Of a stretch of DNA of 64,000 nucleotides, positions 20,441 through 47,346 are shown one piece after another. The notes below the pieces were generated by a model. That model made no database searches. It had not been told where the DNA came from and saw only the letters and a program-made list of their open reading frames with translations. The translations under genes were made by a program, and so were the position numbers. The stretch covers positions 2,924,099-2,988,098 of the forward strand of contig OZ253469.1 of assembly GCA_965261535.1 (NCBI GenBank), in the 5' to 3' direction. Numbering within the stretch: position 1 is the stretch's first letter; each line of letters begins with the position of its first letter. Source of the stretch: Candidatus Azotimanducaceae bacterium. Its GTDB lineage: Bacteria > Pseudomonadota > Gammaproteobacteria > Pseudomonadales > Azotimanducaceae.

Positions 20441-21592
20441 ATGCCCAGACTATGCCGCAACGCCCTCTCCGCCGCCATGGTGCGCACCGCCGGCCCCGGC
20501 AGCTACGTCGACGGCAACGGCCTCATGATGCGCGTGAAGGCGCGCGGGACGCGCCAGTGGGTACAGCGCCTCACCATTCACGGGCGCCGCGTCGATCTCG
20601 GGCTCGGCAGCGCGGAGCTGGTTTCGCTGGCGGATGCGCGGCGGACCGCGGCCGACAACCGGGCGATCGCCCGCACGGGCGGGGATCCCCGCCGCGTCCG
20701 GGTGCCGACCTTCGCCACGGCGGAGGAAGCCTGCTTCGCCGAGAAGCTCGAGACGTGGCGGACCAAGAGTCCGGCGCGCAACTGGCGGGTGGCGGTGGAC
20801 AAATACGTGCTGCCGAGGCTCGGCGGCGTGCCGGTGGACAGGATCGGCACCGCGGCGGTGTACGAGGTGCTGCGCCCGATGGCTCTGGCGGGCAAGCACG
20901 CCACCGTGAAGACGACCGGAGCGGCGATCACGGCGGTGCTGGACTGGGCGCGGATCAACGAGTACCGGTCGGAGGGCTCGCCGGTGGAGACGGTGCGCAG
21001 GAGCCTGCCGAAACGGGCGGCGGGACCGAAGCACCACGACGCCCTGCACTTCTCGGCGGTGGGCGCGGCGCTGGCGACGATCGACGCCACGAACTGCGCG
21101 TCGTCGACGAAGCGGGCCATCCGGTTCACGGCGCTGACAGCGGCGCGGCAGATCGAGGTGCGCCGGGCGACCTGGGAGCAGTTCGACCTGGAGGCGGCGG
21201 TGTGGGTGAAGCGGGCGGAGTCGATGAAGACGGGCAAGGCGCACCGGGTACCGCTGTCTGTGCAGGCGTTGGAGGTGCTGCGGGAGACACGCACGGAGGT
21301 GCCGGGTGCCGGTCTGGTGTTCCCGGGGTCGCAGCCGGGGAGGATGCTGGGCGACAAGGTGATGACGCAGGCGTTGCGCAACTCCGGCATCGCGGCGTCG
21401 GGCCACGGCTTCCGGTCGAGCTTCAAGGACTGGGCGCGGCAGCACGACGTGGACGAGCTGCTCTCGGAGTTCGCGCTGGCGCACGTCGAGGGCTCGGCGA
21501 CGGTGGCCGCCTATGCCCGGGACGACTTGCTGGAGAAGCGGCGCCCGGTCATGCAGGAATGGGCGGATTGCATCTTTCCAACTCATGGATAG
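20441..21592 (+). CDS. P4-type tyrosine integrase
   Basis: N-terminal DUF4102-like LSAAMVRTAGPGSYVDGNGLMMRV...WVQRL. C-terminal catalytic region is HGFRSSFKDWA...LAHVEGSATVAAYAR. An AT-rich junction lies immediately upstream. Confidence 0.85.
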   Translation: MPRLCRNALSAAMVRTAGPGSYVDGNGLMMRVKARGTRQWVQRLTIHGRRVDLGLGSAELVSLADARRTAADNRAIARTGGDPRRVRVPTFATAEEACFAEKLETWRTKSPARNWRVAVDKYVLPRLGGVPVDRIGTAAVYEVLRPMALAGKHATVKTTGAAITAVLDWARINEYRSEGSPVETVRRSLPKRAAGPKHHDALHFSAVGAALATIDATNCASSTKRAIRFTALTAARQIEVRRATWEQFDLEAAVWVKRAESMKTGKAHRVPLSVQALEVLRETRTEVPGAGLVFPGSQPGRMLGDKVMTQALRNSGIAASGHGFRSSFKDWARQHDVDELLSEFALAHVEGSATVAAYARDDLLEKRRPVMQEWADCIFPTHG

Positions 21593-23340: not shown

Positions 23341-24852
23341 ATGTCGGGAACTGAGCGAACGCGGCGAGCACCGCGGGCGGGCGCGTCGGTTGCCATGGCG
23401 CTCGGTGCGGCGAGGTTCCTGGCGGCCCTGGCGCTGCTCCTGTCGCCACTCGGCCACGCCGCGCCGAGGGATCCCTCGAGCAGCCTGCTGTTGCTGATGG
23501 ACGTCTCCGGGAGCATGGGCGACGAGGTCGGCAACGGCAATGGCGAAGTCAAGATCGAGGCGGCCAAGCTGGCGGCGGTCGCCGCTGTTCGGCAGGCCGC
23601 GAAAAAGGGGACGGCAGAAGTGGCGGTGCTCGCCTTCGAGGGCGACTGCGCGCAGCCGGTGCCGCGCCACGCCGGCTTCACGACGGACTACGCCGCGCTG
23701 GAACGCTTCATCGGCGGCCTGCAGCCGGGCGGGGGCACGCCGATGGCGGCGGCGGTGCTGGTCGCCAACCGGTTCATGAAGGACGAAGGCGCGACGACGG
23801 CCCGCGACCGGATGATCGTCCTGCTCGCCGACGGCCAGAACGACTGCGGCGATGTCGCCGATGCGCTGGCGGAGTTGGCGGCGTCGGGCGTGATCTTCCG
23901 CCACGAGACGGTGGGTTTCGGCATCGAACCCGATTCGGGCGCGGCCCGCGACCTGCGCGACATCGCCACGGCGAGCGGCGGCGCCTACCACCACGCGGCG
24001 GACGCGACCCAGCTCGGAGACCTGTTCGTGCAGTTCGTCGACACGTTCACCGTCATCGACATGCTGGGGATGTTCGGGGGCGGCAGGAGCGCGACGGTCC
24101 CACGGGCACCCGGTCAGGCACCGACGCCAGCGGCCCAACCCGCCGCCGCAGCGCCGCGACCATCTTCGCAAGCGGCGCCGTCCGCCAAACCGGTGAGCGG
24201 TCTGCTGGGGCAGTTCAAGGCGAAGACGCCGGCTGCCGAACCCGACGAACCCTCTCCTGCGGCGCAGGCCTTGTGCTACCGGCAGTTCAGGAACCCCACC
24301 GGACTGGCCGGCCTCGGATCCGATGCCGTGACCGAATTCACCTGCGCGCCGTCGTGCCGATCGCTCGATTCGACGTTCTACGGCACCGGGGAGACGAAGG
24401 TGGACGACCCGCCGGGCATGACGTGCGCCGCGCAATGCGCCTTCGCCGCCGGTCCGGATTCGCGGGCGGCCTTCGTCTGGGGACGCTCGATCACGCACAA
24501 CCACTGCGTAGCGGCGCTCGATCCGCTGCGACCGCCCGCAACCGTCGTCCACTACTACCGCGACAACTCGGACAACAAGCACCGTATCGCCTGGGAGCGG
24601 GGGACGCCCGCGACCGGCGGCTTCCGGGTGTACGTGAACCACTACCCGGAGCGGAACGGCGACACGGAGCTGCTCGGCGAACCCCGGGACGACCATTTCG
24701 ATTTCGAGTACGGAATCAACTTCCACGACGGTCCCGCGGTGGACGGGATGAACCTGTGGAAACCGTTTCCGCAGGCCGGTGTGAGCGCCTGCAACAAATA
24801 CGGCATCTGCACCCCGGTCGTCTACGGCGATCTGGGGGACTGCGGCCCGTAG
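23341..24852 (+). CDS. secreted von Willebrand factor A (VWA) domain protein with Cys-rich C-terminal region
   Basis: Signal-like ALGAARFLAALALLLSPLGHA, MIDAS motif MDVSGSMGD and GGGTPMAAA. The C-terminal roughly 230 aa are unassigned. Confidence 0.75.
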   Translation: MSGTERTRRAPRAGASVAMALGAARFLAALALLLSPLGHAAPRDPSSSLLLLMDVSGSMGDEVGNGNGEVKIEAAKLAAVAAVRQAAKKGTAEVAVLAFEGDCAQPVPRHAGFTTDYAALERFIGGLQPGGGTPMAAAVLVANRFMKDEGATTARDRMIVLLADGQNDCGDVADALAELAASGVIFRHETVGFGIEPDSGAARDLRDIATASGGAYHHAADATQLGDLFVQFVDTFTVIDMLGMFGGGRSATVPRAPGQAPTPAAQPAAAAPRPSSQAAPSAKPVSGLLGQFKAKTPAAEPDEPSPAAQALCYRQFRNPTGLAGLGSDAVTEFTCAPSCRSLDSTFYGTGETKVDDPPGMTCAAQCAFAAGPDSRAAFVWGRSITHNHCVAALDPLRPPATVVHYYRDNSDNKHRIAWERGTPATGGFRVYVNHYPERNGDTELLGEPRDDHFDFEYGINFHDGPAVDGMNLWKPFPQAGVSACNKYGICTPVVYGDLGDCGP

Positions 24853-24948: not shown

Positions 24949-26079
24949 GTGGAGAAGACGATCGGAACGACTATCCTCAAGGTGCCGGTTCGGGTGGTGG
25001 CGGTCGCCCTGGTCCTGGCGGTCGCGGCGTTGCCGGCCCGCAGTGCCGAGTTGCCGCCAGCCATCCAGGCGGACCGACACCTCATGCAGGCGGAAAGACA
25101 GATCGGCGACGGCGACTACGCGGCGGCGCTGGCCTCCCTCGACGGAGTCCTGGCGTTGGAGGCGGAACACGATCTGGCGATTCCGGATGCGTTCTGGTTC
25201 AAGCACGGCCAGGTGTCCCAGGAAGCGGGGCTTCACGCCCAGGCGGTGGAGTCGGCAACCCGGTACCTCGTGACGGCGGGCCAGGGCGGCGAGCACTATC
25301 TGCCCGCGCTCGAGTTGCTGGACGTCGCGGAGCGCGAGGCCAGGGCAGTCGCGGACGCGACAGCAGCCGTAGCCCGCGAGATGGTGGTGATCGGGGCGGG
25401 CCGGTTCCGCATGGGCTGCCTGTCGGGCGACGACGCCTGTTCATCCGGGGAGCAGCCGGTCCACGAGGTGGCGGTCGCGGCGTTCGCACTGTCGAAGCAC
25501 GAGGTGACGTTCGCGCAGTGGGACGCCTGCGTGTCGGGCGGCGGCTGCGGCGGCCACCGGCCCGGCGACCGGGGCTGGGGCCGCGCCGACCGGCCGGTGG
25601 TGAACGTGAACTGGCAGGATGCGCAGTCGTACGTGGCGTGGTTGTCGCGCGAGACGGGCGAGGCGTACCGGTTGCCGACGGAGGCGGAATGGGAGTACGC
25701 GGCGCGGGCGGGGACGACGACGAAGTACGGTTGGGGGAACGAGATCGGCGTGAACCGTGCCAATTGCGAAGGCTGCGGAAGTCGATGGGATAACAAGGAA
25801 ACGGCGCCGGTGGGTTCGTTCCCGGCCAACGCCCGGGGGCTGCACGACATGCACGGCAACGTGTGGGAGTGGGTTCAGGACTGTTGGAACGGGAGCTACG
25901 CGGGTGCGCCCGTGGACGGCAGCGCGTGGCTGAGCGGAGACTGTTCCCGGCGTGTTTCGCGCGGCGGTTCCTGGCTCTACGATCCGAGGTACCTCCGCGC
26001 CGCGAACCGGAGCTGGGTCACCTCCGGCATCCGGCTCAACTACGACGGGTTCCGTGTGGCCCGGACGCTCACGCCTTGA
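24949..26079 (+). CDS. DGR variable protein 1: signal peptide, helical N-module and FGE-sulfatase (C-type lectin fold) domain
   Basis: GTG at 24949 follows GGAGGA. FGE-sulfatase motifs are GRFRMGC, RPVVNVNWQDAQSYVAW, YRLPTEAEWEYAAR, HDMHGNVWEW and RGGSW. The last roughly 40 codons are VR1. Confidence 0.85.
   Translation: MEKTIGTTILKVPVRVVAVALVLAVAALPARSAELPPAIQADRHLMQAERQIGDGDYAAALASLDGVLALEAEHDLAIPDAFWFKHGQVSQEAGLHAQAVESATRYLVTAGQGGEHYLPALELLDVAEREARAVADATAAVAREMVVIGAGRFRMGCLSGDDACSSGEQPVHEVAVAAFALSKHEVTFAQWDACVSGGGCGGHRPGDRGWGRADRPVVNVNWQDAQSYVAWLSRETGEAYRLPTEAEWEYAARAGTTTKYGWGNEIGVNRANCEGCGSRWDNKETAPVGSFPANARGLHDMHGNVWEWVQDCWNGSYAGAPVDGSAWLSGDCSRRVSRGGSWLYDPRYLRAANRSWVTSGIRLNYDGFRVARTLTP
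25950..26071 (+). repeat. DGR variable repeat VR1
   Basis: 122 nt, collinear with TR 27683..27804. By hand alignment there are 20 mismatches, 15 of them at TR adenines. Confidence 0.85.
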
Positions 26080-26107
26080 GTCGTTACCTCCTTACGTCCC
26101 GGGGGTT

Positions 26108-26130
26108 CCAAGGGGGCGCAGCCCCCTTGG
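26108..26130 (+). other. GC-rich hairpin downstream of VR1
   Basis: CCAAGGGGGC-gca-GCCCCCTTGG, a 10-bp stem that begins 29 nt after the stop codon. Equivalent hairpins follow VR2 and VR3. Confidence 0.75.
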
Positions 26131-26179
26131 TCGGTTTTCGGGCACATTCGCCCGTCGAGGCGAAGCGGCGGCGTCGAGT

Positions 26180-26587
26180 GTGACCGCGGAGGAACCGAAC
26201 GACGACCGACCGGCGCGGCCCGATCGCGCGCGCAGCACCGGCGCGGCCCTGGAGGCACACTATCGTTTCGTCCTGTGGCTCGTTCCGACGGTGGAACGTT
26301 TTCCCCGCAGTCAGAAGTTCCTGCTCGGCGACCGCATTCAGGCGACCGCACTCGACGTGCTGGAGCGCTTGATCGAAGCCACCTACACCAGGCGCCGGGG
26401 CGGACATCTGGCCGCCGCCAACCTCGGTCTCGAAAAGCTCCGCTTCCTGTTCCGTCTGGCGCGGGACCTCCGGGTCGTCGACCCGCGTCCCCATGAACAC
26501 GCGGCGCGCAGCATCGACGAGACGGGACGCCGGGTCGGTGCTTGGACCAAGGCGCACGATGCCCAGGAAGGAACGCGACCTGTTTGA
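26180..26587 (+). CDS. avd: DGR accessory variability determinant (Avd, four-helix-bundle family)
   Basis: HYRFVLWLVPTVERFPRSQKFLLGDRIQ...LEKLRFLFRLARDL...IDETGRRVGAW matches the Avd / 23S-IVS-protein family pattern. The GTG start at 26180 is tentative. The stop overlaps the RT start. Confidence 0.75.
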   Translation: MTAEEPNDDRPARPDRARSTGAALEAHYRFVLWLVPTVERFPRSQKFLLGDRIQATALDVLERLIEATYTRRRGGHLAAANLGLEKLRFLFRLARDLRVVDPRPHEHAARSIDETGRRVGAWTKAHDAQEGTRPV

Positions 26588-27157
26588 CGGCATCGCGTCG
26601 TTCCAGGCGTTGCCGGGGCCGCTCTGCGCGCGGCCCGGGGCAAGCGCGACAAGCCGGGCGTGGCGGCATTCCTGGCCAACCTCGAACCGGAAGTCCTGCG
26701 GTTGGAGCGCGAACTGGGCAGTGGCCGCTACGTTCCCGGTCGCTACCGGAAGATCGAGATATTCGACCCCAAGCACCGCATCGTGTCGGCCGCGCCGTTC
26801 CGCGACCGGGTGGTGCATCACGCCCTCTGCGCGATCTGCGAGCCGATCTTCGAGCGCGGCTTCGTCCACGACAGCTACGCGAACCGGCTGGGCAAGGGCA
26901 CGCACCGCGCCATCGCCCGCTACGAGCGGTTCCGCGACCGTTCCCGGCACGTCCTGCGGTGCGACATCCATCGATATTTTCCGGCCATCGACCACGAGCT
27001 GCTCAAACGCGATCTGCGCCGCCGCATCGCCTGCGAACGCACGCTGGCCCTGGCGGACCGGATCGTCGACGGCTCCAATCCGCAGGAGCCGGTCCACATC
27101 CACTATCCGGGCGACGACCTGCTGACACCGCTCGAGCGCCGCCGGGGGCTTCCGATT

Positions 27158-27198
27158 CTGTTTTCCCGTTTTGGCGGTCTGTTTCCGATAACAGAATC
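27158..27198 (+). repeat. 41-nt insertion splitting the RT IGxxxSQ motif
   Basis: Removing 27158..27198 joins ...RRGLPI to GNLTSQFF in frame. The insertion forms an 11-bp perfect inverted repeat with its flanks (CCGATTCTGTT / AACAGAATCGG). It also contains direct repeats TCTGTTT x2 and TTCCGAT x2. Confidence 0.7.
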
Positions 27199-27682
27199 GG
27201 CAACCTGACCAGCCAGTTCTTCGCCAACGTCCATCTCGACGGGTTCGACCACTTCTGCAAGGAGGTGCTGCGCGCGCGCGGATACCTGCGCTACGTCGAC
27301 GACTCCGCACTGTTCCACGACGACCCCGCGCAGCTCGACGAGTGGCGGCAACGGATCCGCACCTACCTGGAGGGCAGGCGGCTGCAACTCCATCCGCGCA
27401 AGACGATGATCCTGCCGACCGGCGAGGCGGCGCCGTTCCTGGGGTTCGTGCTGTTGCCCGACGGCCGGCGGCGCCTGCCCGAAGAAAACGTGCGGCGCTT
27501 CCGGAACCGGCTGCGCAGCCTGCGCGACCGCTGGCGGCAAGGCACCGTGACGAAAGAGGAAGTCCTGCGGCGGGTGCGTTCCTGGAACGCGCACGCCGCC
27601 CACGCGAACACCTGGCGCATGCGCCAGTCCATCTTCCGCGCCGGCTGGTTTCAGCCGGCGCGGGAGCTTGACCCTCCCCCGA

Positions 27683-27804
27683 GCGTGTTTTGCGCGGCGG
27701 TTCCTGGAACAACAATCCGAGGAACCTCCGCGCCGCGAACCGGAACAGGAACACCACCGGCAACCGGAACAACAACAGCGGTTTCCGCGTGGCCCGCACG
27801 CTCA
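27683..27804 (+). repeat. DGR template repeat (TR)
   Basis: Adenine-rich in the target reading frame: 10 AAC and 1 AAT codons, 28 A in 120 nt. Collinear with VR1, VR2 and VR3. The 3-prime end reads GCCCGCACGCTC where all VRs read GCCCGGACGCTC. Confidence 0.85.
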
Positions 27805-27878
27805 AAGGCCGGAACCGGCGGCGCCACGGCGCCGGCGGGCGAGCGATGAGCGTCCAGGGAGGGTCATGGTGAGCGGCC

Positions 27879-27921
27879 GGCACCGCCCCTCTTGCCCGCC
27901 GCGGCGGGGAGGGGCGGTGCC
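27879..27921 (+). other. 13-bp perfect stem-loop downstream of TR
   Basis: GGCACCGCCCCTC, 17-nt loop, GAGGGGCGGTGCC. There is no trailing T-run, so it is not a canonical intrinsic terminator. Confidence 0.6.
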
Positions 27922-27977
27922 AACCTGCCATGCGATGTCGGTCGAATGCACCCAAGGAGCAGCCACATGTCCAACTG

Positions 27978-27993
27978 CGGATTTGCGATACTG
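27978..27993 (+). promoter_or_regulatory. conserved 16-mer CGGATTTGCGATACTG, 31 nt upstream of the DGR target 2 start
   Basis: Second copy of the motif at 24904..24919. Confidence 0.35.
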
Positions 27994-28023
27994 CGGTCTC
28001 TTTCGGACCCGGTCGGGGTGGTC

Positions 28024-29160
28024 ATGGAAACCGCAGTCGGGAGCAAGTCGCGGGCGCTGGTCCTGGCGTTGACGCTGGTCTTGTCGTGGGCGTTGCCGGC
28101 GCGGGCGGCGGAACTGGCCCCGGACATCCAGGCGGACCGGTACCTGGTGCAGGCGGAGCGGCAGATCCGAAGCGGAGACCTCGCCGGCGCCCTGGCGACG
28201 CTCGATCGGATTCTGGGCTTGCAGGCGGAGCACGGCCTGGAGATTCCGGATGCGTTCTGGTTCAAGCGGGCCGAAGTGTCGCGGCAGGCGGGGCTGCATG
28301 CCCTGGCGGTCGAGTCGGCGACGCGCTACCTGGAGGCGGCGGGGCGGTCGGGCGAGCACTACATGGCGGCGCTGGAGTTGCTCGATGTGGCGGAGCTGGC
28401 CACGGCGACGGCGGAGCGGGTCGCGCGCGGAGAGTTGCCGGCGATGGTGGTGATTCCCGCGGGCCGGTTCCGCATGGGCTGCCTGTCGGACGACGACGAC
28501 TGCGGTCGCTACGAGAAGCCGGTTCGAGAAGTGGCGATCGCGTCGTTCGCGCTGTCGAAGCACGAGGTGACGTTCGCGCAGTGGGACGCGTGCGTGTCGG
28601 GCGGCGGCTGCGGCGGCCACCGGCCCGACGACGGGGGCTGGGGCCGCGCCGACCGCCCGGTGATGAACGTGAGCTGGGAGGATGCGCAGTCGTACGTGTC
28701 GTGGCTGTCGCGGCAGACGGGCGGGGAATACCGGTTGCCGACGGAGGCGGAATGGGAGTACGCGGCGCGGGCGGGGACGACGACGAAGTACGGTTTTGGG
28801 AACGAGATCGGCGAGAACCGCGCCAACTGCGATGGCTGTGGCAGCCGTTGGGACGACTCGGAAACGGCGCCAGTGGGTTCGTTCCCGGCCAACGCCTGGG
28901 GGCTGCACGACATGCACGGCAACCTGTGGGAATGGGTTCAGGACTGTTTGGGCGGGAGCTACGCGGGTGCGCCCGTGGACGGCAGCGCTTGGTTGGGCGG
29001 GAGCGCTGCGGTCTACGCCGACTGTTCCAACCGTGTTATGCGCGGCGGTTCCTGGGCGATCTATCCGAGCGCCCTCCGCGCCGCGCAGCGGCTCTATTCC
29101 GGCTCCGGCCGCCGGAGCCACGACATCGGTATCCGCGTGGCCCGGACGCTCACGCCTTGA
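28024..29160 (+). CDS. DGR variable protein 2 (paralog of target 1)
   Basis: ATG at 28024. Same signal peptide, helical N-module and FGE-sulfatase layout as target 1. C-terminal VR2. Confidence 0.85.
   Translation: METAVGSKSRALVLALTLVLSWALPARAAELAPDIQADRYLVQAERQIRSGDLAGALATLDRILGLQAEHGLEIPDAFWFKRAEVSRQAGLHALAVESATRYLEAAGRSGEHYMAALELLDVAELATATAERVARGELPAMVVIPAGRFRMGCLSDDDDCGRYEKPVREVAIASFALSKHEVTFAQWDACVSGGGCGGHRPDDGGWGRADRPVMNVSWEDAQSYVSWLSRQTGGEYRLPTEAEWEYAARAGTTTKYGFGNEIGENRANCDGCGSRWDDSETAPVGSFPANAWGLHDMHGNLWEWVQDCLGGSYAGAPVDGSAWLGGSAAVYADCSNRVMRGGSWAIYPSALRAAQRLYSGSGRRSHDIGIRVARTLTP
29032..29152 (+). repeat. DGR variable repeat VR2
   Basis: 121 nt, collinear with TR 27684..27804. By hand alignment there are 29 mismatches, 19 of them at TR adenines. 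Confidence 0.8.
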
Positions 29161-29188
29161 ATCGTTACCTCCTTACGTCCTGGGGGTT

Positions 29189-29223
29189 CCAAGGGGGCGC
29201 AGCCCTGGGCGCAGCCCCCTTGG
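29189..29223 (+). other. GC-rich hairpin downstream of VR2
   Basis: Same 10-bp stem as at 26108, with the loop enlarged to 15 nt (GCAGCCCTGGGCGCA). The 29161..29282 flank is homologous to 26080..26185. Confidence 0.7.
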
Positions 29224-30530: not shown

Positions 30531-31397
30531 ATGCGGCAGTTGAACTACGACCTGAAGCGCCTGCAGGACGACGCCAACCACGGCTCGTTCGGCACCCGGA
30601 CCGGGCGCTCCTTCAATCTCGCCCGCATGGCGAACACCCTCCACGATCTCGGCTACCGGCGCCTGCGGGCGACGGGGCTGAAGGGCAAGCACGTCGAGGC
30701 GCTGGTGCGCGAGTGGAAGCGGAAGGGGCTCTCGATCGGCACCGTCAAGAACAGGATGAGCCACTTGCGCTGGTGGGCGAGGCGGATCGGCAAGCCGAAC
30801 GTGGTGCGCTCCGACAACGCGAGCTACGGGATCGGGGAGCGGAAACGCGTCACCAACGAGGACAGGAGCCGCGACCTGCCGGACGACAGGCTGGCGCTGG
30901 TGCGGGACGCACACGTCCGCATGGCGCTCCGGCTGCAGGAGGCGTTCGGGCTCAGGCGCGAGGAGGCGATCAAGTTCTCGCCGTCGTACGCGGACCGCGG
31001 TTCGAAGATCGTGCTGAAGGCGTCGTGGACCAAGGGCGGCCGGTCGCGGGAGATCCCGGTACTCCAGGAATCGCAGCGGCGGCTGCTCGACGAGGCGCGC
31101 GCCTTCGCCGGCGGCGGGGCCATGATCCCCGGTCACAGGAATTACAAACAGCAGCTCGAGGTCTACGAGAGACAGACGGCGGACGCCGGACTGAAGCGCA
31201 TGCATAGCCTGCGTCACGGTTTCGCCCAGAAGCGCTACGAGGAGATCACCGGCTGGAAGCCGCCGGCCGCGGGCGGGCCGCCGATGCGGAGCCTGAAGGG
31301 GGCGCGCAAGCGGATCGACCGGGACGCCCGGGCGACGATTTCAAGGGAGATGGGACATTCCAGAATTTCAATAGTGGAGATTTATTGTGGTGCATGA
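30531..31397 (+). CDS. tyrosine recombinase / integrase-domain protein (plasmid/ICE-type)
   Basis: 288 aa. Contains LRLQEAFGLRREEAIKF, ASWTKGGRSREIP, HSLRHGFAQKRY and ELGH-like MGHSR. Confidence 0.75.
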   Translation: MRQLNYDLKRLQDDANHGSFGTRTGRSFNLARMANTLHDLGYRRLRATGLKGKHVEALVREWKRKGLSIGTVKNRMSHLRWWARRIGKPNVVRSDNASYGIGERKRVTNEDRSRDLPDDRLALVRDAHVRMALRLQEAFGLRREEAIKFSPSYADRGSKIVLKASWTKGGRSREIPVLQESQRRLLDEARAFAGGGAMIPGHRNYKQQLEVYERQTADAGLKRMHSLRHGFAQKRYEEITGWKPPAAGGPPMRSLKGARKRIDRDARATISREMGHSRISIVEIYCGA

Positions 31398-31809
31398 AAG
31401 CCGTTCTGCGGGCGTCGACGTGGCGCTCATGATCGATTTCTGGAACCTGGTGCGCGGCGTCGAGAACGACGTCGACTGCGAGGCGCTGTACCGGTTCGCC
31501 GGGGAGCACGGCAGGGTCGCCGCGGCCAACGCCTACGCCGACTGGGGCGAGGACGAGGTGAACAGTTACCAGCCGGTGCTCCGCGGTCTCGGCGTCGAAC
31601 CGGTGCAAGTGTCGGTGCGGTCGGACAGGGCGCACGGGGTTGGCATCAGGATGGCCGTCGACGCGGTGGACCTGATGTGGTCGGAGCCGACGGTGGGCGT
31701 CTACGTGATCGTGGCGGCGGACACGGGGCTGTTCCCGGCCGTGAAGACGTTGCGGCAGCGCGGGAGGAAGGTCGTCGGCGTGTGGCCGGCGGGCGGCAGT
31801 CCGTTGTAG
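31387..31809 (+). CDS. NYN (LabA-like, PIN-related) domain protein
   Basis: 140 aa. VALMIDFWNL...AYADW...VDLM...YVIVAADTGLFPAVKTLRQRGRKV matches the NYN layout. Overlaps the integrase stop. Confidence 0.65.
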   Translation: MVHESRSAGVDVALMIDFWNLVRGVENDVDCEALYRFAGEHGRVAAANAYADWGEDEVNSYQPVLRGLGVEPVQVSVRSDRAHGVGIRMAVDAVDLMWSEPTVGVYVIVAADTGLFPAVKTLRQRGRKVVGVWPAGGSPL

Positions 31810-38011: not shown

Positions 38012-39394
38012 TCAGTTCGGTACCACAACGGGCACGGCTTCCACCCGCCCGTGTTCAGGCTCTCCGACTTCTCTTACAACCCTGAATCCAACAGTCAGCC
38101 CGCTGTTTCGACGGTGAGGATCCTGAGACTGATCCAAGGGAATTGCCATCCCCCAACCCCGCGGATGCCAGTTCCCCAAAGCCACCGACGGGCACTCAAG
38201 GAGGCTCTCGTAGGCACCGCCCACGTCTCTTCCGACCCAGATAAAGTTCTTCGTCACCGCGCAAGAGTGGAGGATCTCTGAGATCGAGTTGAACGCCACC
38301 CCGACCTCGTTTGTCCAGCAATGCGCAGGCCCTGGATCGCATTGGGCCGCACCCACCCCGTCGCACTTCTGAAGGTCTCGGACGCAATCGGTCGGTATCG
38401 GCCGCGCGTGTCCGGGCCGGATCGCGCGCAGTTCGCTAGCGACCTGCGTTCCGATCCAAACGGCGTACTCCCACTCGGCCGCACCAGGGAGCCTGTAGCG
38501 ACGGCCTGTCTGCTGGCTGAGCCAGTGGGCGTACTCCTCGGTGTCGCGTACGGTGACACACACGACCGGATGTTCACTGGTCTGACGATACGCGTGCGAC
38601 TTCCAGATCATGCCCGAGTTTCTTCCTGACGCGAGAGGAGTGTGGCACCCGAAGCTGGAACGCCGTTCCGCCTCCGTCTTGTAGCGAGTCGCTTTGACGA
38701 ACGCTTCGAACTGACCAACCGTTGTCGCGTGCTTCGCAACCGCGAAGCTGGCAAGCTCGACGACTTCGCACTGTTGCGCGGTTCCTTCTTCGTTGTACCT
38801 CCCGCTGTTGTAGCAGAACTGCCCGCCGGGCAGATACACCAGTTTCGGCCCGATGCCGCCGTCTGACAGTTCGTCGCCAGGCAATTCGACCGACGCTTCA
38901 ATCTGCCTCTGCGCAATCGCCCGAGCTCGTTCTCGACGCATCGTCTCTTCCCGCTGTCTCTGCGCCTCGAGTTCAGCTTCCCTCCTCGCCTGTGCCGCTT
39001 TGTCTTCCAGCCGAATGGAGAGCCTAAGCGCGGCCCGATAGTGTTCTCCCCGGCGACCGGCCAACCGCAGATAGACGTTCACGGAGTCTACGGCCGCGTC
39101 CAAAATGCCCAACTCGTCGCACAACCTCGCATGCGCGTACCAGAGTGCTGGCGGAATCGATTCGGAGTCTGGATCCATCGCCCGCAGGGCATCGAACGCG
39201 GCCAGGGCTTTGGCATGCTGGCCGTCCTCGACGCGCAACTCGAACTCGGCAATGCGCCGGTCCAATGCCAGCGGGGATGCGGAGGATTCCCCGCCGACAT
39301 CGGCGGCGCCGGCTGCGAGCGCAACCATGGCGCAGGTCGCCGCGAAGCCGGTGCGAAGCACCCTTCGAGCCGATTTCGAGTTCCGTCTCAGCAC
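38012..39394 (-). CDS. FGE-sulfatase domain protein with the shared helical N-module (no cognate VR)
   Basis: GTG start at 39394 precedes a signal-like segment. The N-module (ALWYAHARLCDELG...YLRLAGRRGEHYRAALRL) parallels the DGR targets. Contains RYRLPGAAEWEYA. The C-terminus is unrelated to the TR. Confidence 0.7.
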   Translation of the reverse strand: MLRRNSKSARRVLRTGFAATCAMVALAAGAADVGGESSASPLALDRRIAEFELRVEDGQHAKALAAFDALRAMDPDSESIPPALWYAHARLCDELGILDAAVDSVNVYLRLAGRRGEHYRAALRLSIRLEDKAAQARREAELEAQRQREETMRRERARAIAQRQIEASVELPGDELSDGGIGPKLVYLPGGQFCYNSGRYNEEGTAQQCEVVELASFAVAKHATTVGQFEAFVKATRYKTEAERRSSFGCHTPLASGRNSGMIWKSHAYRQTSEHPVVCVTVRDTEEYAHWLSQQTGRRYRLPGAAEWEYAVWIGTQVASELRAIRPGHARPIPTDCVRDLQKCDGVGAAQCDPGPAHCWTNEVGVAFNSISEILHSCAVTKNFIWVGRDVGGAYESLLECPSVALGNWHPRGWGMAIPLDQSQDPHRRNSGLTVGFRVVREVGEPEHGRVEAVPVVVPN

Positions 39395-39512
39395 GCTTTG
39401 CCCGAACGTATCGTGTACTCCGTACGCTCGAGAACGACGGCTCACCCCCTTCCTACCACCCGCTGCCAGTAACGGAGGGCAACCGCTGGCATTCTGACCG
39501 GTGCAAGCCGAC

Positions 39513-40319
39513 TCATCGTCCGTGTTCACGCCGCCAATTCTCCGACCCTGCGGGGAGAATCTCGTCCGCCGGTTGTGCCGTGCGCGACAGAGCGTCCTTG
39601 ATTCGCGACTTCCACGCTTCGGGTATCGAGAAACAGAGACCTTCTCGGCACATGCGAAGGTCAAGATCGCGCTCCACGACCTGCTCCTTGAGCCCGGGTA
39701 TGGCGTTCAAGTCGCCGGCGCTGGCTCTCAGAATCTCCAGTTGGCGCTCTTGCCTGAGTCCACGGATCTGGTTGAGGACCCCTTCCTGTTGTTCGGGAGC
39801 GAACGTGGCCGCCAGCTTGGATAGGGTTCCGACCCCAACAGCGCCTTGCGAAGTACTGACGGTCGCTTGGATCGAGGGTGCGAGCTTGAGAAGGTCGAGG
39901 TAGCGTCGCACGGTACGTGCGGTCACCCCCGTTGCCTGCGCGACGCGCCCCAAGTCTCCGCACTTGGCTCGGATGGCGTCGTACGCTTTGGCTTTGTCGA
40001 TCGGATGCATGTCGGCCCGCTGGACGTTCTCGACGAGGGACACAACCGTCGAGTCAGTGTCGCTGAGGTCGTCCCTGATCGTCGCAGGAATAGTTGCCAG
40101 TCCGAGTGCGCGGCATGCCAGCAGTCGTCGCTGACCGGCGATCAGGTCAAAGCAGCCATCGGCCGCCTCGCGCACAATGACCGGGCTAAGCACGCCTAGG
40201 TCGCGAATGCTGCTGGCAAGCTCGGCGAGCCCGGCGTCTTCCGTGCCGGCATCGAGGTCCTTGCGGGCATTGAAGTCAGACACCCGAATCGACTCAAGGG
40301 TGAGTTCGGTGGTCTCCAA
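39513..40319 (-). CDS. ParB/Srx N-terminal domain (ParB-like nuclease) protein
   Basis: Contains IRVSDFNARKDL, GVLSPVIVRE, DLIAGQRRLLACRALG and ENVQRADMHP, typical of the ParB N-domain. Confidence 0.8.
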   Translation of the reverse strand: METTELTLESIRVSDFNARKDLDAGTEDAGLAELASSIRDLGVLSPVIVREAADGCFDLIAGQRRLLACRALGLATIPATIRDDLSDTDSTVVSLVENVQRADMHPIDKAKAYDAIRAKCGDLGRVAQATGVTARTVRRYLDLLKLAPSIQATVSTSQGAVGVGTLSKLAATFAPEQQEGVLNQIRGLRQERQLEILRASAGDLNAIPGLKEQVVERDLDLRMCREGLCFSIPEAWKSRIKDALSRTAQPADEILPAGSENWRREHGR

Positions 40320-40540: not shown

Positions 40541-43507
40541 ATGACCAGGGAAGGCGACTCGACGCAGGCTGACAAACTTCGGCAACTGGAGCACATCGCG
40601 TATCCGGAAGCGCTCCGGTGCCGCGAGGAGCAACTGGTCGCCAACCGTCACAGAAAGGCGGGCGAGAAGGCGCTCGAGCGACGCGAACCTCAAGTAGGCC
40701 TCGCTCTCTCCGGGGGAGGCATCCGGAGCGCCACTTTCGCGCTCGGGGTGCTTCAGGCGATCGCCAAGCGCAGAGCGCTGCAGCAAGTCGACCTGCTCTC
40801 GACCGTATCCGGGGGCGGCTACACCGGCGGGATGCTCACCCGTCTCTTCTCCAGGAAAGAGGTCCACGGCGTCCACGACGTAGAGAACGCCATCCTGGCG
40901 CCCTGGGAGCGGCGCGAGCCGGACGATCCCAATGCCAAGACCATCGAGCCCGGCGCCGTGCTGGCGTGGCTTCGGGAGAACGGCCACCACCTTGCGCCCA
41001 ACGGGGCGGGAGACCTGCTCCTCGGCGGAGCGGTCATCTTCCGCAACTGGCTCTCCGTGCTCGTCGTGCTCGCGACCCTCGTTCTTACCGGATTCGTCCT
41101 GATGCAACTGGCGCGCCACGGCGTTCCGTTCATCGACTTCGCCATGCCAGGTTGCGGCGGCCCGGTCGCGGCCGCGGCAACGGGCTTCGAAGCGTGGCTG
41201 ACCTGCCATTTGCCCCTCGGCGGGGAATACGTGTGGTGGAGCCCATGGGTGGCCCTGCCCTTCCTCGTCTTCGTCCTCTGGGTCGCACCATGCGGCTTGG
41301 CCTACTGGCTGATGCCCGGAACGGCCGGGACCAGGCTGGCCGTCGCGGGGAGATTGTTCGGAGTGCTGGTCCTGCTTGGCGCATCAGCCTGGGGCCTGCA
41401 CGTCACCGGGACACCGTCCGCATGGGCAATCGGACTGGTCTTCGGTGTAGCGCTGTTCGCGTTCATCGTGTACGACATTGCTGACCACGCACTCCGACGC
41501 AAGCAGTGCTCTGAGGCGTCGAAGCGGCTTGAGTTGAGCCACCGTCTCTCCTCGTGGCTGAAGCGCGCCCTGCTGGCGTTCGCCGCGGTCACGGCCCTCG
41601 CCGTCCTGGATACGCTTGGGCAGACGCTCTACACGGTCGCCATCGATCCCGACATCCGCATGGGCGCCGTCATCGGCGGGGCGTTGAGTGCCGTGGCGGC
41701 GCTGGCTGTCGGTGGCCGAAGGCTCGCCGTCCGATTCCGTGGCGACGGGGACCCGGCCCGACCCCGTTTGCCACTCAAGGTGACGGCGAGCGCCGTTACG
41801 GCGCTCGTTCTGATCGCGACGCTCGCACCTCTTAACGCGCTATCACACGCCATCGCCTGGAACCTCGACTATCCGGCTGGCGTGCCCGCCGACCTCTGGA
41901 CTTCGGCGACGGTCGAGTCACGATGTCCGCCGGTCCTGCGACGTTGTCCCGATTCCGCAGCGTCAGATCTGGTCAGCTGCCCGGTCGCATGTCCGGAGGT
42001 CGGGAAGCCAGCCCTTGCGAGCGCAGGAATCTACTTCGTGCTACTGGCACTCCTTTCTTTCGTCTTCGGCCATGCCCGCCGGTTCCTGAACGACTCGACG
42101 CTGCAGCCCCTCTATCGGGCACGCATCATCCGGGCCTACCTCGGCGCCTCCAACCCCAGGCGCCTCGACAGACGCCACCCCAAGCCCGTCACCAGAATGC
42201 TCCACGGAGACGACGCGGCTGTCGACTGGGATCGTGGAAGCGAACTCGCTGAGGACGAGGAGAACCCACTGAAGAAGTACGACCATGGGGCTCCCCTGCA
42301 CATCGTCAACGTGACCGTCAACGAGACGGCGGAGAAGAAGACAGGGATCCAGCGAAACGATCGCGGCGGCATCGGCATGGCGGTAGGCCCCGCCGGGATC
42401 AGTGCGGGCGTTCGCCACCACGTGGTGTTCCACGCGTCGGCGGACAGCAACGGGTTGCTGGCACAGGTGTTCCCCGACGCCGGGGACAAGCATGCCTTCC
42501 GGATGTTCGACTACGCGGACGCCGCGGAGTCTTCCGGTCAGGAGACGACGGCGCGCTATCGCGGCGAGTCGCTTACCCTGGGCCAGTGGATCGGCATTTC
42601 CGGCGCTGCTTTCTCGACGGGTGTCGGGTCGCGGACGAGCTTCCCGCTCTCCTTCCTGGCAGGCATCCTGAACGTGCGCCTCGGATACTGGTGGGACTCC
42701 GGGATCGGGCGTGGATCCCGCCTCCTGCCCAAGTTATCCAAAGGGGACGACCAGACGGCAGATGGTTCTAGCAGCGACGGGCTTGCATCGAGGACGTTCG
42801 CCACCCTGTTCCCCGTGCAGAGCTATCTCCTCGACGAGCTGTTCGCACGGTTTCGCGGTGTGCACCGACCACGGTGGAATCTCTCCGACGGCGGCCATTT
42901 CGAGAACCTGGGCGCATACGAGCTGATCCGACGCCGCGTGCCCCTGATCGTGATCGTCGACGCGGAGGCCGACCCCGACTATCGCTTCGAGGGGCTCGGG
43001 AACCTGGTGCGCAAGGCCCGGGTGGACTTCGGCGCGAAGATCACGTTTCTCGATCCCCAACAGGTTGGGCGCCTGGCGAGCGACAACGCCTGGATGACAT
43101 ACTACGGTTCGCTGGACATGCTGCGCCGGGATGCTAGGGATAACGAGGCAGGCGCAGGCGTCCATGGGCACACGCACGCGACTTCTTCTCGCGACACCGG
43201 GCGCTCACTCGCGCACGTCGCGCTGGCAACAGTCTGTTACGAGGGCGGCGATGCCGACAAGACCTCGCTGATCCTATACCTCAAGCCCACACTGGTGGGA
43301 GACGAACCCGTGGACATCACCCACTATCACGAGGCCAACCCGGCGTTCCCGCAGCAGACGACCAAGGACCAGTTCTTCGACGAAGCGCAGTGGGAGAGCT
43401 ACCGGAAACTCGGAGAGATCGTGGGGTTGCGCTCGATACCGGAGAGCGGCGGGTTTGAGTCGGTCCGCAAGCTGACAAGGCCACTCAACCAGGATCCGGA
43501 GGCCTAG
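40541..43507 (+). CDS. patatin-like phospholipase with a large internal multi-pass membrane region
   Basis: 988 aa. Oxyanion motif LSGGGIRSA and Ser motif STVSGGGY lie near the N-terminus. The catalytic Asp motif SDGGHFENLG lies about 690 aa later. Several hydrophobic helices sit in between. Confidence 0.75.
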   Translation: MTREGDSTQADKLRQLEHIAYPEALRCREEQLVANRHRKAGEKALERREPQVGLALSGGGIRSATFALGVLQAIAKRRALQQVDLLSTVSGGGYTGGMLTRLFSRKEVHGVHDVENAILAPWERREPDDPNAKTIEPGAVLAWLRENGHHLAPNGAGDLLLGGAVIFRNWLSVLVVLATLVLTGFVLMQLARHGVPFIDFAMPGCGGPVAAAATGFEAWLTCHLPLGGEYVWWSPWVALPFLVFVLWVAPCGLAYWLMPGTAGTRLAVAGRLFGVLVLLGASAWGLHVTGTPSAWAIGLVFGVALFAFIVYDIADHALRRKQCSEASKRLELSHRLSSWLKRALLAFAAVTALAVLDTLGQTLYTVAIDPDIRMGAVIGGALSAVAALAVGGRRLAVRFRGDGDPARPRLPLKVTASAVTALVLIATLAPLNALSHAIAWNLDYPAGVPADLWTSATVESRCPPVLRRCPDSAASDLVSCPVACPEVGKPALASAGIYFVLLALLSFVFGHARRFLNDSTLQPLYRARIIRAYLGASNPRRLDRRHPKPVTRMLHGDDAAVDWDRGSELAEDEENPLKKYDHGAPLHIVNVTVNETAEKKTGIQRNDRGGIGMAVGPAGISAGVRHHVVFHASADSNGLLAQVFPDAGDKHAFRMFDYADAAESSGQETTARYRGESLTLGQWIGISGAAFSTGVGSRTSFPLSFLAGILNVRLGYWWDSGIGRGSRLLPKLSKGDDQTADGSSSDGLASRTFATLFPVQSYLLDELFARFRGVHRPRWNLSDGGHFENLGAYELIRRRVPLIVIVDAEADPDYRFEGLGNLVRKARVDFGAKITFLDPQQVGRLASDNAWMTYYGSLDMLRRDARDNEAGAGVHGHTHATSSRDTGRSLAHVALATVCYEGGDADKTSLILYLKPTLVGDEPVDITHYHEANPAFPQQTTKDQFFDEAQWESYRKLGEIVGLRSIPESGGFESVRKLTRPLNQDPEA

Positions 43508-45552: not shown

Positions 45553-45576
45553 CCAAGGGGGGCAAGCCCCCCTTGG
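45553..45576 (-). other. GC-rich hairpin downstream of VR3
   Basis: CCAAGGGGGG-cttg-CCCCCCTTGG on the minus strand. Same position as the VR1 and VR2 hairpins. One stem pair is changed on both sides. Confidence 0.7.
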
Positions 45577-45607: not shown

Positions 45608-46969
45608 TCAAGGGGTGAGCGTCCGGGCCACACGGAACCCGATGAAGTAGTCGCGGTAGTCGGCGGAGTGCCTGAGGCGGTACGCGGCGCGGAGGGACCT
45701 CGGGAAGAGGTACCAGGAGCCGCCGCGCAACACGGGCAGGACACAGTCCCGCTGCAGCCAGGCGCTGCCATCCGACGGGGCGTCTGTATAGCTGCCGTTC
45801 CAGCAGTCCGCCACCCACTCCCACACGTTCCCGTGCATGTCGTGCAGCCCGAATGCGTTCGGAGCAAACGAGCCTGCGGGAGCGGTTCGGTCAGCGTCCC
45901 ATCGGCTACCGCAGCCACTGCAATGCGCCCGGTTCACGCCGATCTCGTTGCCCCAACTGTACCTCGTCGTGCTCCCCGCCCGTGCCGCGTACTCCCACTC
46001 CGCCTCGCTCGGCAAACGGTACTCCTCCTCCGTCTCGCGGGACAGCCACGACACGTAGGATTGCGCATCCTCCCAGCTCACGTTGATCACGGGGCGATTG
46101 GCACGCCCCCAGCCTTCGTCGTCTGGTCGATAGCCCCCGCACCCGCCTCGCGCGACGCACCCGTCCCACTGCGCTAACGTCACTTCGTGCACCGAAAGCG
46201 CGAATGCCCGCCGAATCGACACCGCATGCACCGGCTTCTCGTCATCGCGACAGTCCAGACCCGTCACGCAACCCATCCGGAACCGGCCCGCTGGGACCAC
46301 CACCATCTCGGGGCCCTCGCCACCCGAACGCAGCGCGTCGCGGAATACCGTGCCGGGCGCGCCGGCGGTCGGCGCCGCCCGCGGCGCGGGCGTGGATGGC
46401 TGCCGTCCGGCGGCGCGCGGTTGCGGGGGATCGGCGGCCGGTGCGTCGCCCGCCGCAGCGGTGGGCGCGAAGGTGTAGTCGACGGACCACCTCGAGAATC
46501 CGGGCGTGTCGGTGTGGAACGCGACGACCGAGAGCGTCTCGGTCAACGTCTCCCCGGGGCGCACGGATATGGGGTCGGCGCTGCGCTGGATGTGGCCGGC
46601 CGGGTCCGCCCACCGCGCGCCCGCCGCCCCGTCCCAGTTGGTGCAGGGCGGCTAGGGCGCGTCGATCTGGTAGCGGGCGATGAGGTGGTTCAGGGGCTGC
46701 CCGGAGTCGTTGCGCACCGAGAACTCGAGCTCCCACAGATGCAGGGGCTGGCCGTCGTTGGCCTTGATCTGCTCGTAGACCTGCTCCGAGTGATGAGCCT
46801 CCAGCACGCGGCAGGTTGCCGCGCCGTACTCGACCAGCCGCGCCGTCCCGGCCAGCACGATGCCGTCCTTCTCCAGCAACTGCTCCGCGCGGCTGCCGAC
46901 GGCGGCGAGGACCAGCACCGGCAGAACTGTGCTGGCGGCCCGGCACGCGGCGCGCTGTCGTCCGCCCAT
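45608..46969 (-). pseudogene. DGR variable protein 3 (FGE-sulfatase domain) with an in-frame TAG
   Basis: ORFs 46652..47065 and 45608..46564 are in the same frame, separated only by the TAG at 46652..46654. Start at 46969 (MGGRQRAACRAASTVLPVLVLAAVG) follows GGAGGGA. C-terminal VR3. Confidence 0.8.
45616..45735 (-). repeat. DGR variable repeat VR3 (remote, opposite strand)
   Basis: The reverse complement is collinear with the TR. By hand alignment there are 28 mismatches, 18 of them at TR adenines. Carries the same GCCCGGACGCTC 3-prime end as VR1 and VR2. Confidence 0.8.
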
Positions 46970-47079
46970 GGTCCCTCCACGAAGCCTATGGTCGGTGGAA
47001 GAGCGAATCCGAGCGGCCATTCTATCGTCGTTTGTTCGACGCCTGGCGTGTCTGAGTCTCGCCATGCGCCGTCCAGGCT

Positions 47080-47142
47080 CGCGGAGCTCAACTGATGCCG
47101 TCGCCGCTGAAGAAGCAAGCTTCCGGCCCGCCTTCCCGGCAA
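47080..47142 (-). repeat. about 60-nt conserved leader element, copy 2
   Basis: See 36755..36815. Lies about 110 nt upstream of the target 3 start. Confidence 0.6.
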
Positions 47143-47346
47143 CATCGGAGGACCTGGTACGCGGATTCGCGGGTTGCGCAGGTGCAGTGGAAGCGCCGCC
47201 AGACCTGTCGGACCGGCGCCATGCCGGGCACAGCCGAAGTTCAACGCAACAGGTCCTGCGGCCGGAACAGGAGCGAGCACCGCAGCAGACGACTCTGGCG
47301 GCACTTGTCCTGCTCTTCGCCGTTGCGGTGCAGGCGCAACGGGCCG

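Follow-up and report, generated by a model that had tools for sequence, protein, structure and literature searches.

The prototype of the diversity-generating retroelements (DGRs) is that of Bordetella phage BPP-1, in which the genes are arranged in the order mtd-avd-TR-brt and the template repeat (TR) serves one target, the tail fibre protein Mtd. The BPP-1 element requires a hairpin at its target site (Guo et al. 2011, PMC3240598), and the hairpins of phage DGRs have a GRNA loop consensus and lie 4-34 bp from the variable repeat (VR) (PMC3240598). In the catalogue of Wu et al. 2018 (PMC5758913), architecture B2 comprises chromosomal DGRs with the gene order avd-RT-TR (where RT = reverse transcriptase) and multiple, non-adjacent targets; 23% of the DGRs contained non-A-to-N substitutions, of which a single target had at most 11. 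A locus with the avd-RT-TR order is present in Candidatus Azotimanducaceae bacterium, in a stretch of 64,000 nucleotides (nt) from contig OZ253469.1 (assembly GCA_965261535.1, positions 2,924,099 to 2,988,098 of the forward strand). This whole stretch is referred to below as the window, and coordinates are given in its numbering. The locus is a genuine DGR. Its own RT has probably been inactivated, and recently so, which would have frozen the VRs of its three target genes, themselves still intact.

The window locus shares with the B2 DGRs its gene order, multiple targets (including a non-adjacent one within 50 kb), evidence of horizontal transfer and occasional non-A substitutions (PMC5758913). 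The DGRs in that catalogue had been selected as putatively functional, whereas the window RT is frameshifted and interrupted. BPP-1 differs from the window locus in its order (avd-TR-RT), in its single target as opposed to three of the FGE-sulfatase type and in its location, as the window locus is found among metabolic genes, integrases and an insertion sequence (IS) and not in a phage. The TR of the window is also contained in the run-on tail of the RT open reading frame (ORF), and its RT gene, unlike that of BPP-1, appears to be inactivated. The DGR of Treponema denticola, in which one TR serves several remote targets, is comparable to the window in this respect (PMC5758913). Its variable protein TvpA (PDB 2y3c) has the same FGE-sulfatase-like C-type-lectin fold with a C-terminal VR, but the accessory gene of the Treponema DGR is HRDC (architecture C, PMC5758913) and that of the window is avd. 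A first-pass annotation of the window, made from its letters without database searches, had proposed a cassette of the order target/VR1 - Avd - RT - TR - target/VR2. This is correct, as judged by the adenine bias, the Avd model, the Brt match and the IMH* marker described below. The annotation, which saw in this the architecture of adenine-directed mutagenic retrohoming, had also treated the RT gene as intact. This does not hold, as the RT is broken by a 1-nt deletion and a 41-nt insert. The parts of the cassette are as follows.

24949..26079, + strand: target gene 1; ORF open from 24859, start uncertain; VR1 at the C-terminus
25950..26071, + strand: VR1; C-terminal codons of target gene 1; cognate variable repeat of the window TR
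26180..26587, + strand: avd; 135 amino acids (aa), GTG start; 29-nt overlap with the start of the RT gene
26559..27849, + strand: DGR RT gene, disrupted, in three frames; ATG at 26559; domain ends near 27666
27683..27804, + strand: TR; 29 A in 122 nt; 10 AAC and 1 AAT codons in the target frame
28024..29160, + strand: target gene 2; ATG at 28024, opening METAVGSKSRALVLALTLVL...; ORF open from 27892; paralogue of target 1
29031..29152, + strand: VR2; C-terminus of target gene 2; related to the window TR, non-canonical or drifted

A direct repeat of 122 nt is present in three collinear copies on the + strand (25950-26071, 27683-27804 and 29031-29152), the outer two of which form the final ~40 codons of two paralogous ORFs. 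The TR was compared with each VR programmatically and without gaps, mismatches were tabulated by TR base and enrichment was assessed with a one-sided Fisher test. VR1 differs from the TR at 20 positions, 15 of which are TR adenines (p = 1.0e-7). VR2 differs at 30 positions over 122 nt, with 19 on TR adenines (p = 4.4e-8). In the core of the repeat (27700-27777, 27 A in 78 nt), VR1 has 15 mismatches at TR adenines and none elsewhere, while VR2 has 19 at adenines and 6 at other bases. Over the whole 122 nt, the non-A differences number 11 in VR2, which equals the maximum in the catalogue (PMC5758913), and 12 in VR3 (a fourth copy discussed below), which exceeds it. The first-pass annotation had aligned these repeats by hand, and most of what it reported was reproduced: the collinearity of the TR with the 3' ends of two FGE-sulfatase genes (VR2 being one nt longer than it had stated), the 15 of 20 and 19 of 29 mismatches on TR adenines (the latter over the 121 nt that it had assigned to VR2), the count of AAC and AAT codons and, for VR1, the conservation of non-adenine positions in the central block. 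The adenine enrichment that it wished to see confirmed by computational alignment is given by the two p-values above.

The locus belongs to a family with the constant layout VR - avd - RT - TR. A scan of species-representative genomes identified 78 related loci (L001-L078), and two sister elements, L079 (ENA ERZ28763718 ctg118206) and L080 (ENA ERZ25069191 ctg578052), have the same arrangement as the window (FGE target - Avd of 135 aa - RT - TR - FGE target). Among 67 family TRs, scored by non-A mismatches in the transfer zone, the window TR is the best fit to VR1 (1 non-A mismatch) and also to VR2, yet with 7 non-A mismatches; VR2 alone has differences (27710 and 27749) that are unexplained by any family TR. 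At position 27778 the TR has G where all three VRs have A or T (26045, 29126 and the VR3 equivalent). G is found at this position in 5 of 66 family TRs, the majority of which have A; this rare G is common to both sister TRs and is also carried by the sister VRs. This could mean that no homing event was fixed in the window lineage after the TR gained its G; otherwise, the history of this position is more complex. The non-A mismatches of VR2 and VR3 were also considered as proof of long decay. This argument was tempered because the VR1 core has none and those of VR3 are accounted for by a different template; clean family pairs also show 2-5 non-A differences over 122 nt, located at the edges and at IMH*.

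Avd was identified by two curated models, NCBIfam NF033474 (DivGenRetAVD, 101.4 bits, cut-off 80) and Pfam PF22296 (bAvd, 63 bits, cut-off 40), so the Avd-like ORF of the first-pass annotation passes family searches; a 135-aa avd is called at the same place in the sister loci. The RT gene begins at ATG 26559, continues past ~26613-26620 in the frame of 26660..27208 and past 27196 in the frame of 26542..27849, and was recovered as three tblastn segments in three frames. A conceptual repair (addition of 1 nt, removal of 41 nt) gives a protein of 416 aa, which is also the length of the sister RT P0001 (intact and 95% identical). In the PDB, the repaired RT is most similar to 8ub7 (328-aa chain, 8ub7-8ube; E-value: 6.8e-44 over residues 2-340), a chain that is 100% identical by sequence to the annotated brt of BPP-1. 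Its best match to a group II intron RT is far weaker (E-value: 7.6e-17), as are those to retron RTs (1e-7), and it scores 120.6 bits against the NCBIfam group II intron RT model, far under the cut-off of 300. Judged by these match scores, the protein appears to belong to the DGR clade, closer to DGR RTs than to group II intron or retron RTs, and none of the outcomes that the first-pass annotation had named as contrary to a DGR was observed. In the full-length Brt match and in the motifs I/LGxxxSQ and YxDD, as well as in the presence of Avd and of adenine-specific TR-to-VR differences at AAC codons, the locus is like BPP-1. The motifs (IGNLTSQ, 27196-27216; YVDD, 27292-27303) are both in the frame of 26542..27849, between VR1 and the TR as first reported, but the gene that contains them had been treated as intact and is not.

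With no stop codon ahead of the TR, the RT ORF reads through it (27667-27849) in a frame other than that of the targets, as in sisters P0001 and P0005. Such run-through products are 416-424 aa long, and other family members stop earlier (357-397 aa). The tail through the TR is probably incidental.

Target 1 has a signal-peptide-like N-terminus and a helical region, followed by an FGE-sulfatase/C-type-lectin-like domain (PF03781, 205.9 bits, profile positions 3-255 of 255) that reaches the stop codon. Target 2 has the same domain (200.2 bits), in agreement with the FGE-sulfatase domains with C-terminal VRs of the first-pass annotation. The target paralogues are 75-92% identical upstream of the VR, and their PDB relatives include PvdO, FGE and TvpA. 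In all three targets, the PF03781 match extends to the final residues, and the VR is thus placed by domain prediction at the 3' end of an ORF with an FGE-sulfatase/C-type-lectin scaffold.

There is next to no chance that the locus is not a DGR and that its repeats are the conserved C-termini of paralogues plus a gene fragment, homogenised by gene conversion. The targets are indeed paralogous and similar upstream of the VR, but the TR lies outside any target gene, directly after the RT; the mismatches are strongly adenine-specific; and Avd and a DGR-type RT with its Brt match are encoded between the repeats. The same pattern recurs in a profile of 54 family pairs and again between the sisters, whose TRs are identical. 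Together, these observations refute the gene conversion explanation.

The two lesions of the RT gene are as follows.

26613..26620, + strand: lesion 1, 1-nt deletion in CCGGGGCC, at ~codon 19, relative to 8 relatives and 2 sisters
27156..27196, + strand: lesion 2, 41-nt insert TTCTGTTTTCCCGTTTTGGCGGTCTGTTTCCGATAACAGAA, splitting the RT motif GLPI/GNLTSQ

At lesion 1 the window reads GCCGG-GGCC where the sisters read GCTGGAGGCC; an alignment and a frame scan found the extra base in the 8 relatives and in both sister elements. Translation from ATG 26559 opens MPRKERDLFDGIASFQAL, after which the frame shifts because one base is missing in CCGGGGCC, and reading resumes in another frame as AALRAARGKRDKPGVAAFLANLE... 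The insert of lesion 2 has a G+C content of 44% in a gene of 68% G+C, is bounded by 7-nt terminal inverted repeats (11 bp when the palindromic target is included) and is located at the exact centre of the palindrome CCGA/TCGG. All relatives are uninterrupted at this site (CTTCCGATCGGCAAC), and taking out exactly 41 nt restores both GLPIGNLTSQ and the frame. Neither lesion is found in ~80 relatives, which include the two intact sisters. The split motif aligns with IGSLTSQ of Brt, ~35 residues ahead of the catalytic YxDD. An RT that is split at motif 4 is expected to be inactive. The window RT, broken between GLPI and GNLTSQ, should accordingly have no activity, and with two independent lesions in its RT gene the cassette as encoded would not be self-sufficient for mutagenic retrohoming and could not diversify by itself. 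This lowers the claim of activity and leaves the identity of the locus as a DGR intact.

No second copy of the insert was found in the window at up to 3 mismatches or by short-word BLAST, and none was found by short-word BLAST in 0.9 Mb of related loci. An exact 27-mer of the insert was absent from metagenome and viral contigs, as was a 37-mer flanking it from metagenome contigs, and blastn did not find the insert in plasmid or phage collections. The insert as a mobile repeat similar to a miniature inverted-repeat transposable element or a repetitive extragenic palindromic element was therefore rejected, as it has no copies in the window, related loci or collections. No recurrent small-hairpin inserts were seen among 11 broken RTs of the family. 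Exact-protein look-ups with the integrase, the von Willebrand A (VWA) protein, Avd and an RT fragment returned no record.

It is highly improbable that the insert is a recoding element, with ribosomes hopping from AUU (27155-27157) to AUC (27196-27198) to restore GLPI-GNLTSQ. Precedents for such bypassing are phage T4 gene 60 and yeast mitochondrial byps. The take-off and landing codons both encode Ile and are joined by the terminal inverted repeats in an 11-bp helix, and the hop would yield exactly the wild-type peptide. However, the take-off codon is not directly followed by a stop (the first one in frame comes 17 codons later), the matched codons stem from a 2-nt junction duplication, the insert folds as a hairpin of ordinary stability (z = -1.55) and is found nowhere else, and the upstream 1-nt deletion breaks the ORF independently. 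Rescue of the RT by translational bypass or programmed frameshifting was rejected as unlikely.

The intact sisters provide direct evidence that the lineage is active. L079 and L080 encode intact RTs of 416 and 424 aa, each with 95% protein identity to the window RT, which carries two lesions, and their TRs differ from the window TR at 4 of 122 positions. Between L079 and L080, avd is 98.2%, the RT 99.5-100% and the TR 100% identical, whereas VR1 is only 85% and VR2 83% identical; 17 of the 18 differences in VR1 and 19 of the 21 in VR2 fall on TR adenines. Mutagenic homing has thus taken place in these elements. Relative to a sister, the window RT has a synonymous divergence (dS) of 0.134 and a nonsynonymous divergence (dN) of 0.023, or a dN/dS of 0.17 (0.15 before the insert and 0.19 after it); the corresponding ratios are 0.06 for avd and 0.33 for the non-VR parts of the targets. 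The RT was therefore under purifying selection for most of this divergence. As VR1 is a near-perfect, adenine-only derivative of the TR and the RT still shows purifying selection, these data suggest that the lesions of the window RT are recent.

Loss of the RT is a common fate in the family, as decayed RTs are found in at least 13 of the 78 related loci. The 11 broken relatives examined in detail have unrelated lesions, namely 1-nt deletions, deletions of 20-196 nt, truncations and one 648-nt insertion. The last of these (L067:6687-7336, in a Chloroflexota metagenome-assembled genome [MAG]) is an insertion of ~648 nt just after YVDD in which the flanking frame is kept. A second, decayed DGR cassette lies beside the intact one in L079 (13400-18750, - strand); its RT is a fragment of 243 aa, its Avd is 101 aa long, and FGE-sulfatase is represented by several fragments.

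Several points weigh against a recent inactivation of the RT. Lesion 1 falls within a run of G, where sequencing errors are typical, and both lesions are known from the assembled sequence alone. A low dN/dS and a clean VR1 are equally expected of an active element. The VR/TR mismatch at 27778, together with the 6 non-A core differences of VR2, leaves the history of the TR and VRs not fully explained. Finally, the view is limited to 64 kb, and a second RT-Avd pair elsewhere in the genome could serve the window TR. The first of these points would fit a fully intact and active DGR in which both lesions are assembly or sequencing artefacts, as would the RT dN/dS of 0.17 and the clean VR1, but this explanation is improbable. 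A non-repetitive, AT-rich insert of 41 nt is an atypical error, and the gene resumes precisely beyond it. There are two independent lesions, and decayed RTs are common in the family. A high indel error rate of the assembly is also made less likely by ORFs of 2.7-3.7 kb that are intact elsewhere in the window. Nor is the insert known to resemble sequencing adapters.

The third target, which was overlooked by the first-pass annotation, lies 18 kb from the cassette.

45608..46564, - strand: target gene 3; 318 aa; non-adjacent FGE-sulfatase paralogue (PF03781, 203 bits)
45616..45737, - strand: VR3; C-terminus of target 3; fourth TR-like copy

VR3 has 30 mismatches to the TR, 18 of which are at A; all 18 are in the core, with 5 more at non-A positions there. 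Eight other family TRs fit VR3 better than the window TR does (non-A mismatches: 3 for L001, 4 for the sisters and 6 for the window), and the 5 core non-A sites are polymorphic among family TRs, with the VR3 base present in a sizeable share of them at every site. VR3 is therefore probably an orphan that was last written by an older or paralogous template. Target 3 adjoins an IS transposase gene (43558-45015, + strand; DDE_Tnp_1_4, 490 bits).

The sequence features that would direct homing are conserved as well.

27797, + strand: IMH* marker (IMH, initiation of mutagenic homing); C in the TR, G in all three VRs
26108..26130, + strand: hairpin after VR1, CCAAGGGGGC-GCA-GCCCCCTTGG; 10-bp stem; identified by folding
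29189..29223, + strand: hairpin after VR2, lengthened by a 12-nt internal duplication, GCGCAGCCCTGG; identified by folding
45553..45576, - strand: hairpin after VR3, CCAAGGGGGG-CTTG-CCCCCCTTGG; top pair compensatory relative to the VR1 hairpin
27798..27921, + strand: structured RNA with P1, P2, an unpaired stretch and a long two-part hairpin; 32-locus alignment

At the end of the repeat, the TR reads GCCCGCACGCTC and all VRs read GCCCGGACGCTC. In a position-by-position profile of 54 clean TR/VR pairs of the family, the column of 27797 differs in 89% of pairs (C or T in the TR, G or A in the VR), while the flanking columns are ~100% identical. The first-pass interpretation of this end as an IMH versus IMH* difference is thus upheld across the family. 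The profile also places the limits of homology at ~27683-27803 and shows core mismatches confined to local TR adenines. As in BPP-1, the IMH/IMH* pair is at the 3' end of the repeat and by analogy would have a role in the directionality of homing; IMH* of the window group differs at only one or two positions (27797, and 27782 in the sisters), in contrast to that of BPP-1.

G+C hairpins with 10-bp stems are located 36-39 nt beyond VR1, VR2 and VR3. Downstream of 36 of 62 family VRs there is a perfect stem of 8 bp or more; most of these hairpins lie at a distance of 31-43 nt and have a common CC..GGGGG motif with stem-preserving, compensatory variation. The hairpins of the window match the target-site hairpin of the BPP-1 type, although their loops are of 3-4 nt and not GRNA and their distance from the VR is ~37 nt as opposed to the 4-34 bp of phage DGRs. 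The VR2 hairpin has a longer, imperfect stem compared with those of VR1 and VR3. Given this duplication and the non-A differences of VR2, target 2 may be a poorer homing site.

The structured RNA 3' of the TR pairs with the end of the TR, as does that of BPP-1. In P1, the final six TR bases (27798-27803, ACGCUC) pair with GAGCGU (27848-27853), enclosing the hairpin P2 (27815-27838). P1 is followed by a conserved unpaired stretch (27854-27873, CCAGGG.CGGUCAUGAUGAG) and a long two-part hairpin (27879-27921). In an alignment of 32 related loci (A3), with slid registers and 500 shuffles as controls, 89.1% of cells are paired compared to 45-51% in the slid registers. Changes on both sides are seen in 26 of 34 pairs, and none of the 500 shuffles reaches the observed values; compensatory changes are seen even among the window, L079 and L080. 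An Rfam scan of the window, including this RNA, matched no family. By analogy, the RNA is most likely the priming RNA of DGRs of the avd-RT-TR type.

The proposed model for the family, which is based on analogy with the Bordetella phage and supported by the sister elements, is as follows. In intact members, a transcript carrying the TR and the 3' structured RNA would be bound by RT-Avd. Synthesis of complementary DNA (cDNA) would misincorporate bases opposite template adenines, and the cDNA would then replace the VR, with the IMH/IMH* difference at 27797 setting the direction. Homing would be aided by the G+C hairpin ~37 nt beyond each VR, and rewriting would be limited to AAC-type codons in the last ~40 codons of what are predicted to be secreted binding proteins. 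In the window copy, the lesions at ~codon 19 and in the catalytic-core motif GLPIGNLTSQ would stop self-diversification.

Alternatively, the cassette could be non-autonomous yet still diversifying, with its TR RNA or VRs served in trans by an intact paralogous RT-Avd pair elsewhere in the genome. This is unlikely, though several observations fit it. Genomes of this family often contain more than one copy: one alphaproteobacterial MAG has three (L016-L018), four further pairs of loci share a genome (L014/L024, L026/L033, L044/L075 and L048/L053), and intact and decayed cassettes lie side by side in L079. Cross-recognition is plausible, given that the VR hairpin, the IMH and the structured RNA downstream of the TR are all conserved family-wide. 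VR3 is better explained by other family TRs than by the local one, and at 27778 all VRs have A or T in place of the rare G of the local TR, where most family TRs have A. In the BPP-1 work of Guo and colleagues, avd-TR-brt reportedly functions when supplied from a plasmid, which would count in the same direction. However, there is no second RT within the window, and the local TR is the best match to VR1 and VR2, even at rare local variants such as G at 27743, so a foreign TR did not write them. The inactivated DGR with frozen VRs remains the probable reading for the window. It is a doubtful but broader proposal that RT-defective cassettes persist as non-autonomous clients of multi-cassette DGR networks, in which a paralogous RT-Avd pair would recognise the conserved RNA 3' of the TR, the IMH and the hairpin and keep rewriting local and orphan VRs. 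If so, symbionts could pool and exchange repertoires of hypervariable surface proteins.

RT homologues are numerous, with at least 7,919 in a large protein collection at E-values of 1e-50 or below. RTs with 75-82% identity are found across MAGs of very distant phyla, labelled as Pseudomonadales, Acidobacteriota, Palauibacter, Dehalococcoidia, Spirochaetia, Nitrospirales, Latescibacterota, Binatia, Thermodesulfobacteriota and others. Such identity across distant phyla implies horizontal transfer, and suggests that transfer of this RT family has been extensive within one habitat. Several MAG names (Poriferihabitaceae, Porisulfidus, Palauibacter and Rariloculaceae) are suggestive of sponge symbionts; a literature search for DGRs in sponge symbionts found no dedicated paper in the library covered.

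As a DGR, the window locus is ordinary: its avd-RT-TR architecture, target fold and multiple targets have already been catalogued. It is of value as a well-resolved picture of the DGR life cycle, with a copy that appears recently disabled, two diversifying sisters of 95% identity and further decayed copies. With these, one can date the inactivation relative to the last homing, follow the drift of the TR and ask whether orphan VRs are served in trans. The family-level results (single-base IMH*, VR hairpin, covarying RNA and cross-phylum spread) are perhaps more useful than the locus itself, and the covarying RNA lends itself directly to comparative work on the priming RNA of DGRs outside phages.

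The cassette is flanked by two tyrosine recombinase genes.

20441..21592, + strand: P4-type tyrosine integrase, left of the cassette (Pfam Arm-DNA-bind_3, Phage_int_M and Phage_integrase)
30531..31397, + strand: second tyrosine recombinase, right of the cassette (Pfam Phage_int_SAM_2, 62.5 bits; Integrase_1, 52.8 bits)

The first-pass annotation had placed the DGR inside an integrase-bounded accessory region. Integrases are indeed present on both sides of this putative island. No tRNA gene was found in the window, and G+C content climbs from ~0.64 to ~0.69 over 24-34 kb. The left part of the window contains metabolic genes. An NYN-domain gene (31387-31809, + strand) adjoins the right-hand integrase, and a ParB-like gene is located at 39513-40319 (- strand). 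Together with the IS transposase gene, these are further signs that ~20-46 kb is mobile or accessory DNA.

Target 1 is immediately preceded by a VWA-domain gene (23341-24852, + strand). In a sister (L079:2972-4201), an FGE-sulfatase target likewise has a VWA gene for a neighbour, and VWA proteins and variable proteins may be functionally linked. A fourth FGE-sulfatase-related ORF (38012-39664, - strand, 550 aa) covers only positions 3-126 of 255 of the profile. It has a helical N-terminus like that of the DGR targets and no VR-like C-terminus, and is a diverged or degenerate FGE-sulfatase paralogue. To the right of the DGR is a cluster of eukaryote-like repeat proteins (46860-47936; 50507-54235, - strand; 54325-57321, - strand; and 40541-43507), comprising ankyrin repeats, leucine-rich repeats with cadherin-like and Calx-beta domains, a lamin-tail domain and a patatin-like gene. 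This gene set is typical of host-associated symbionts.

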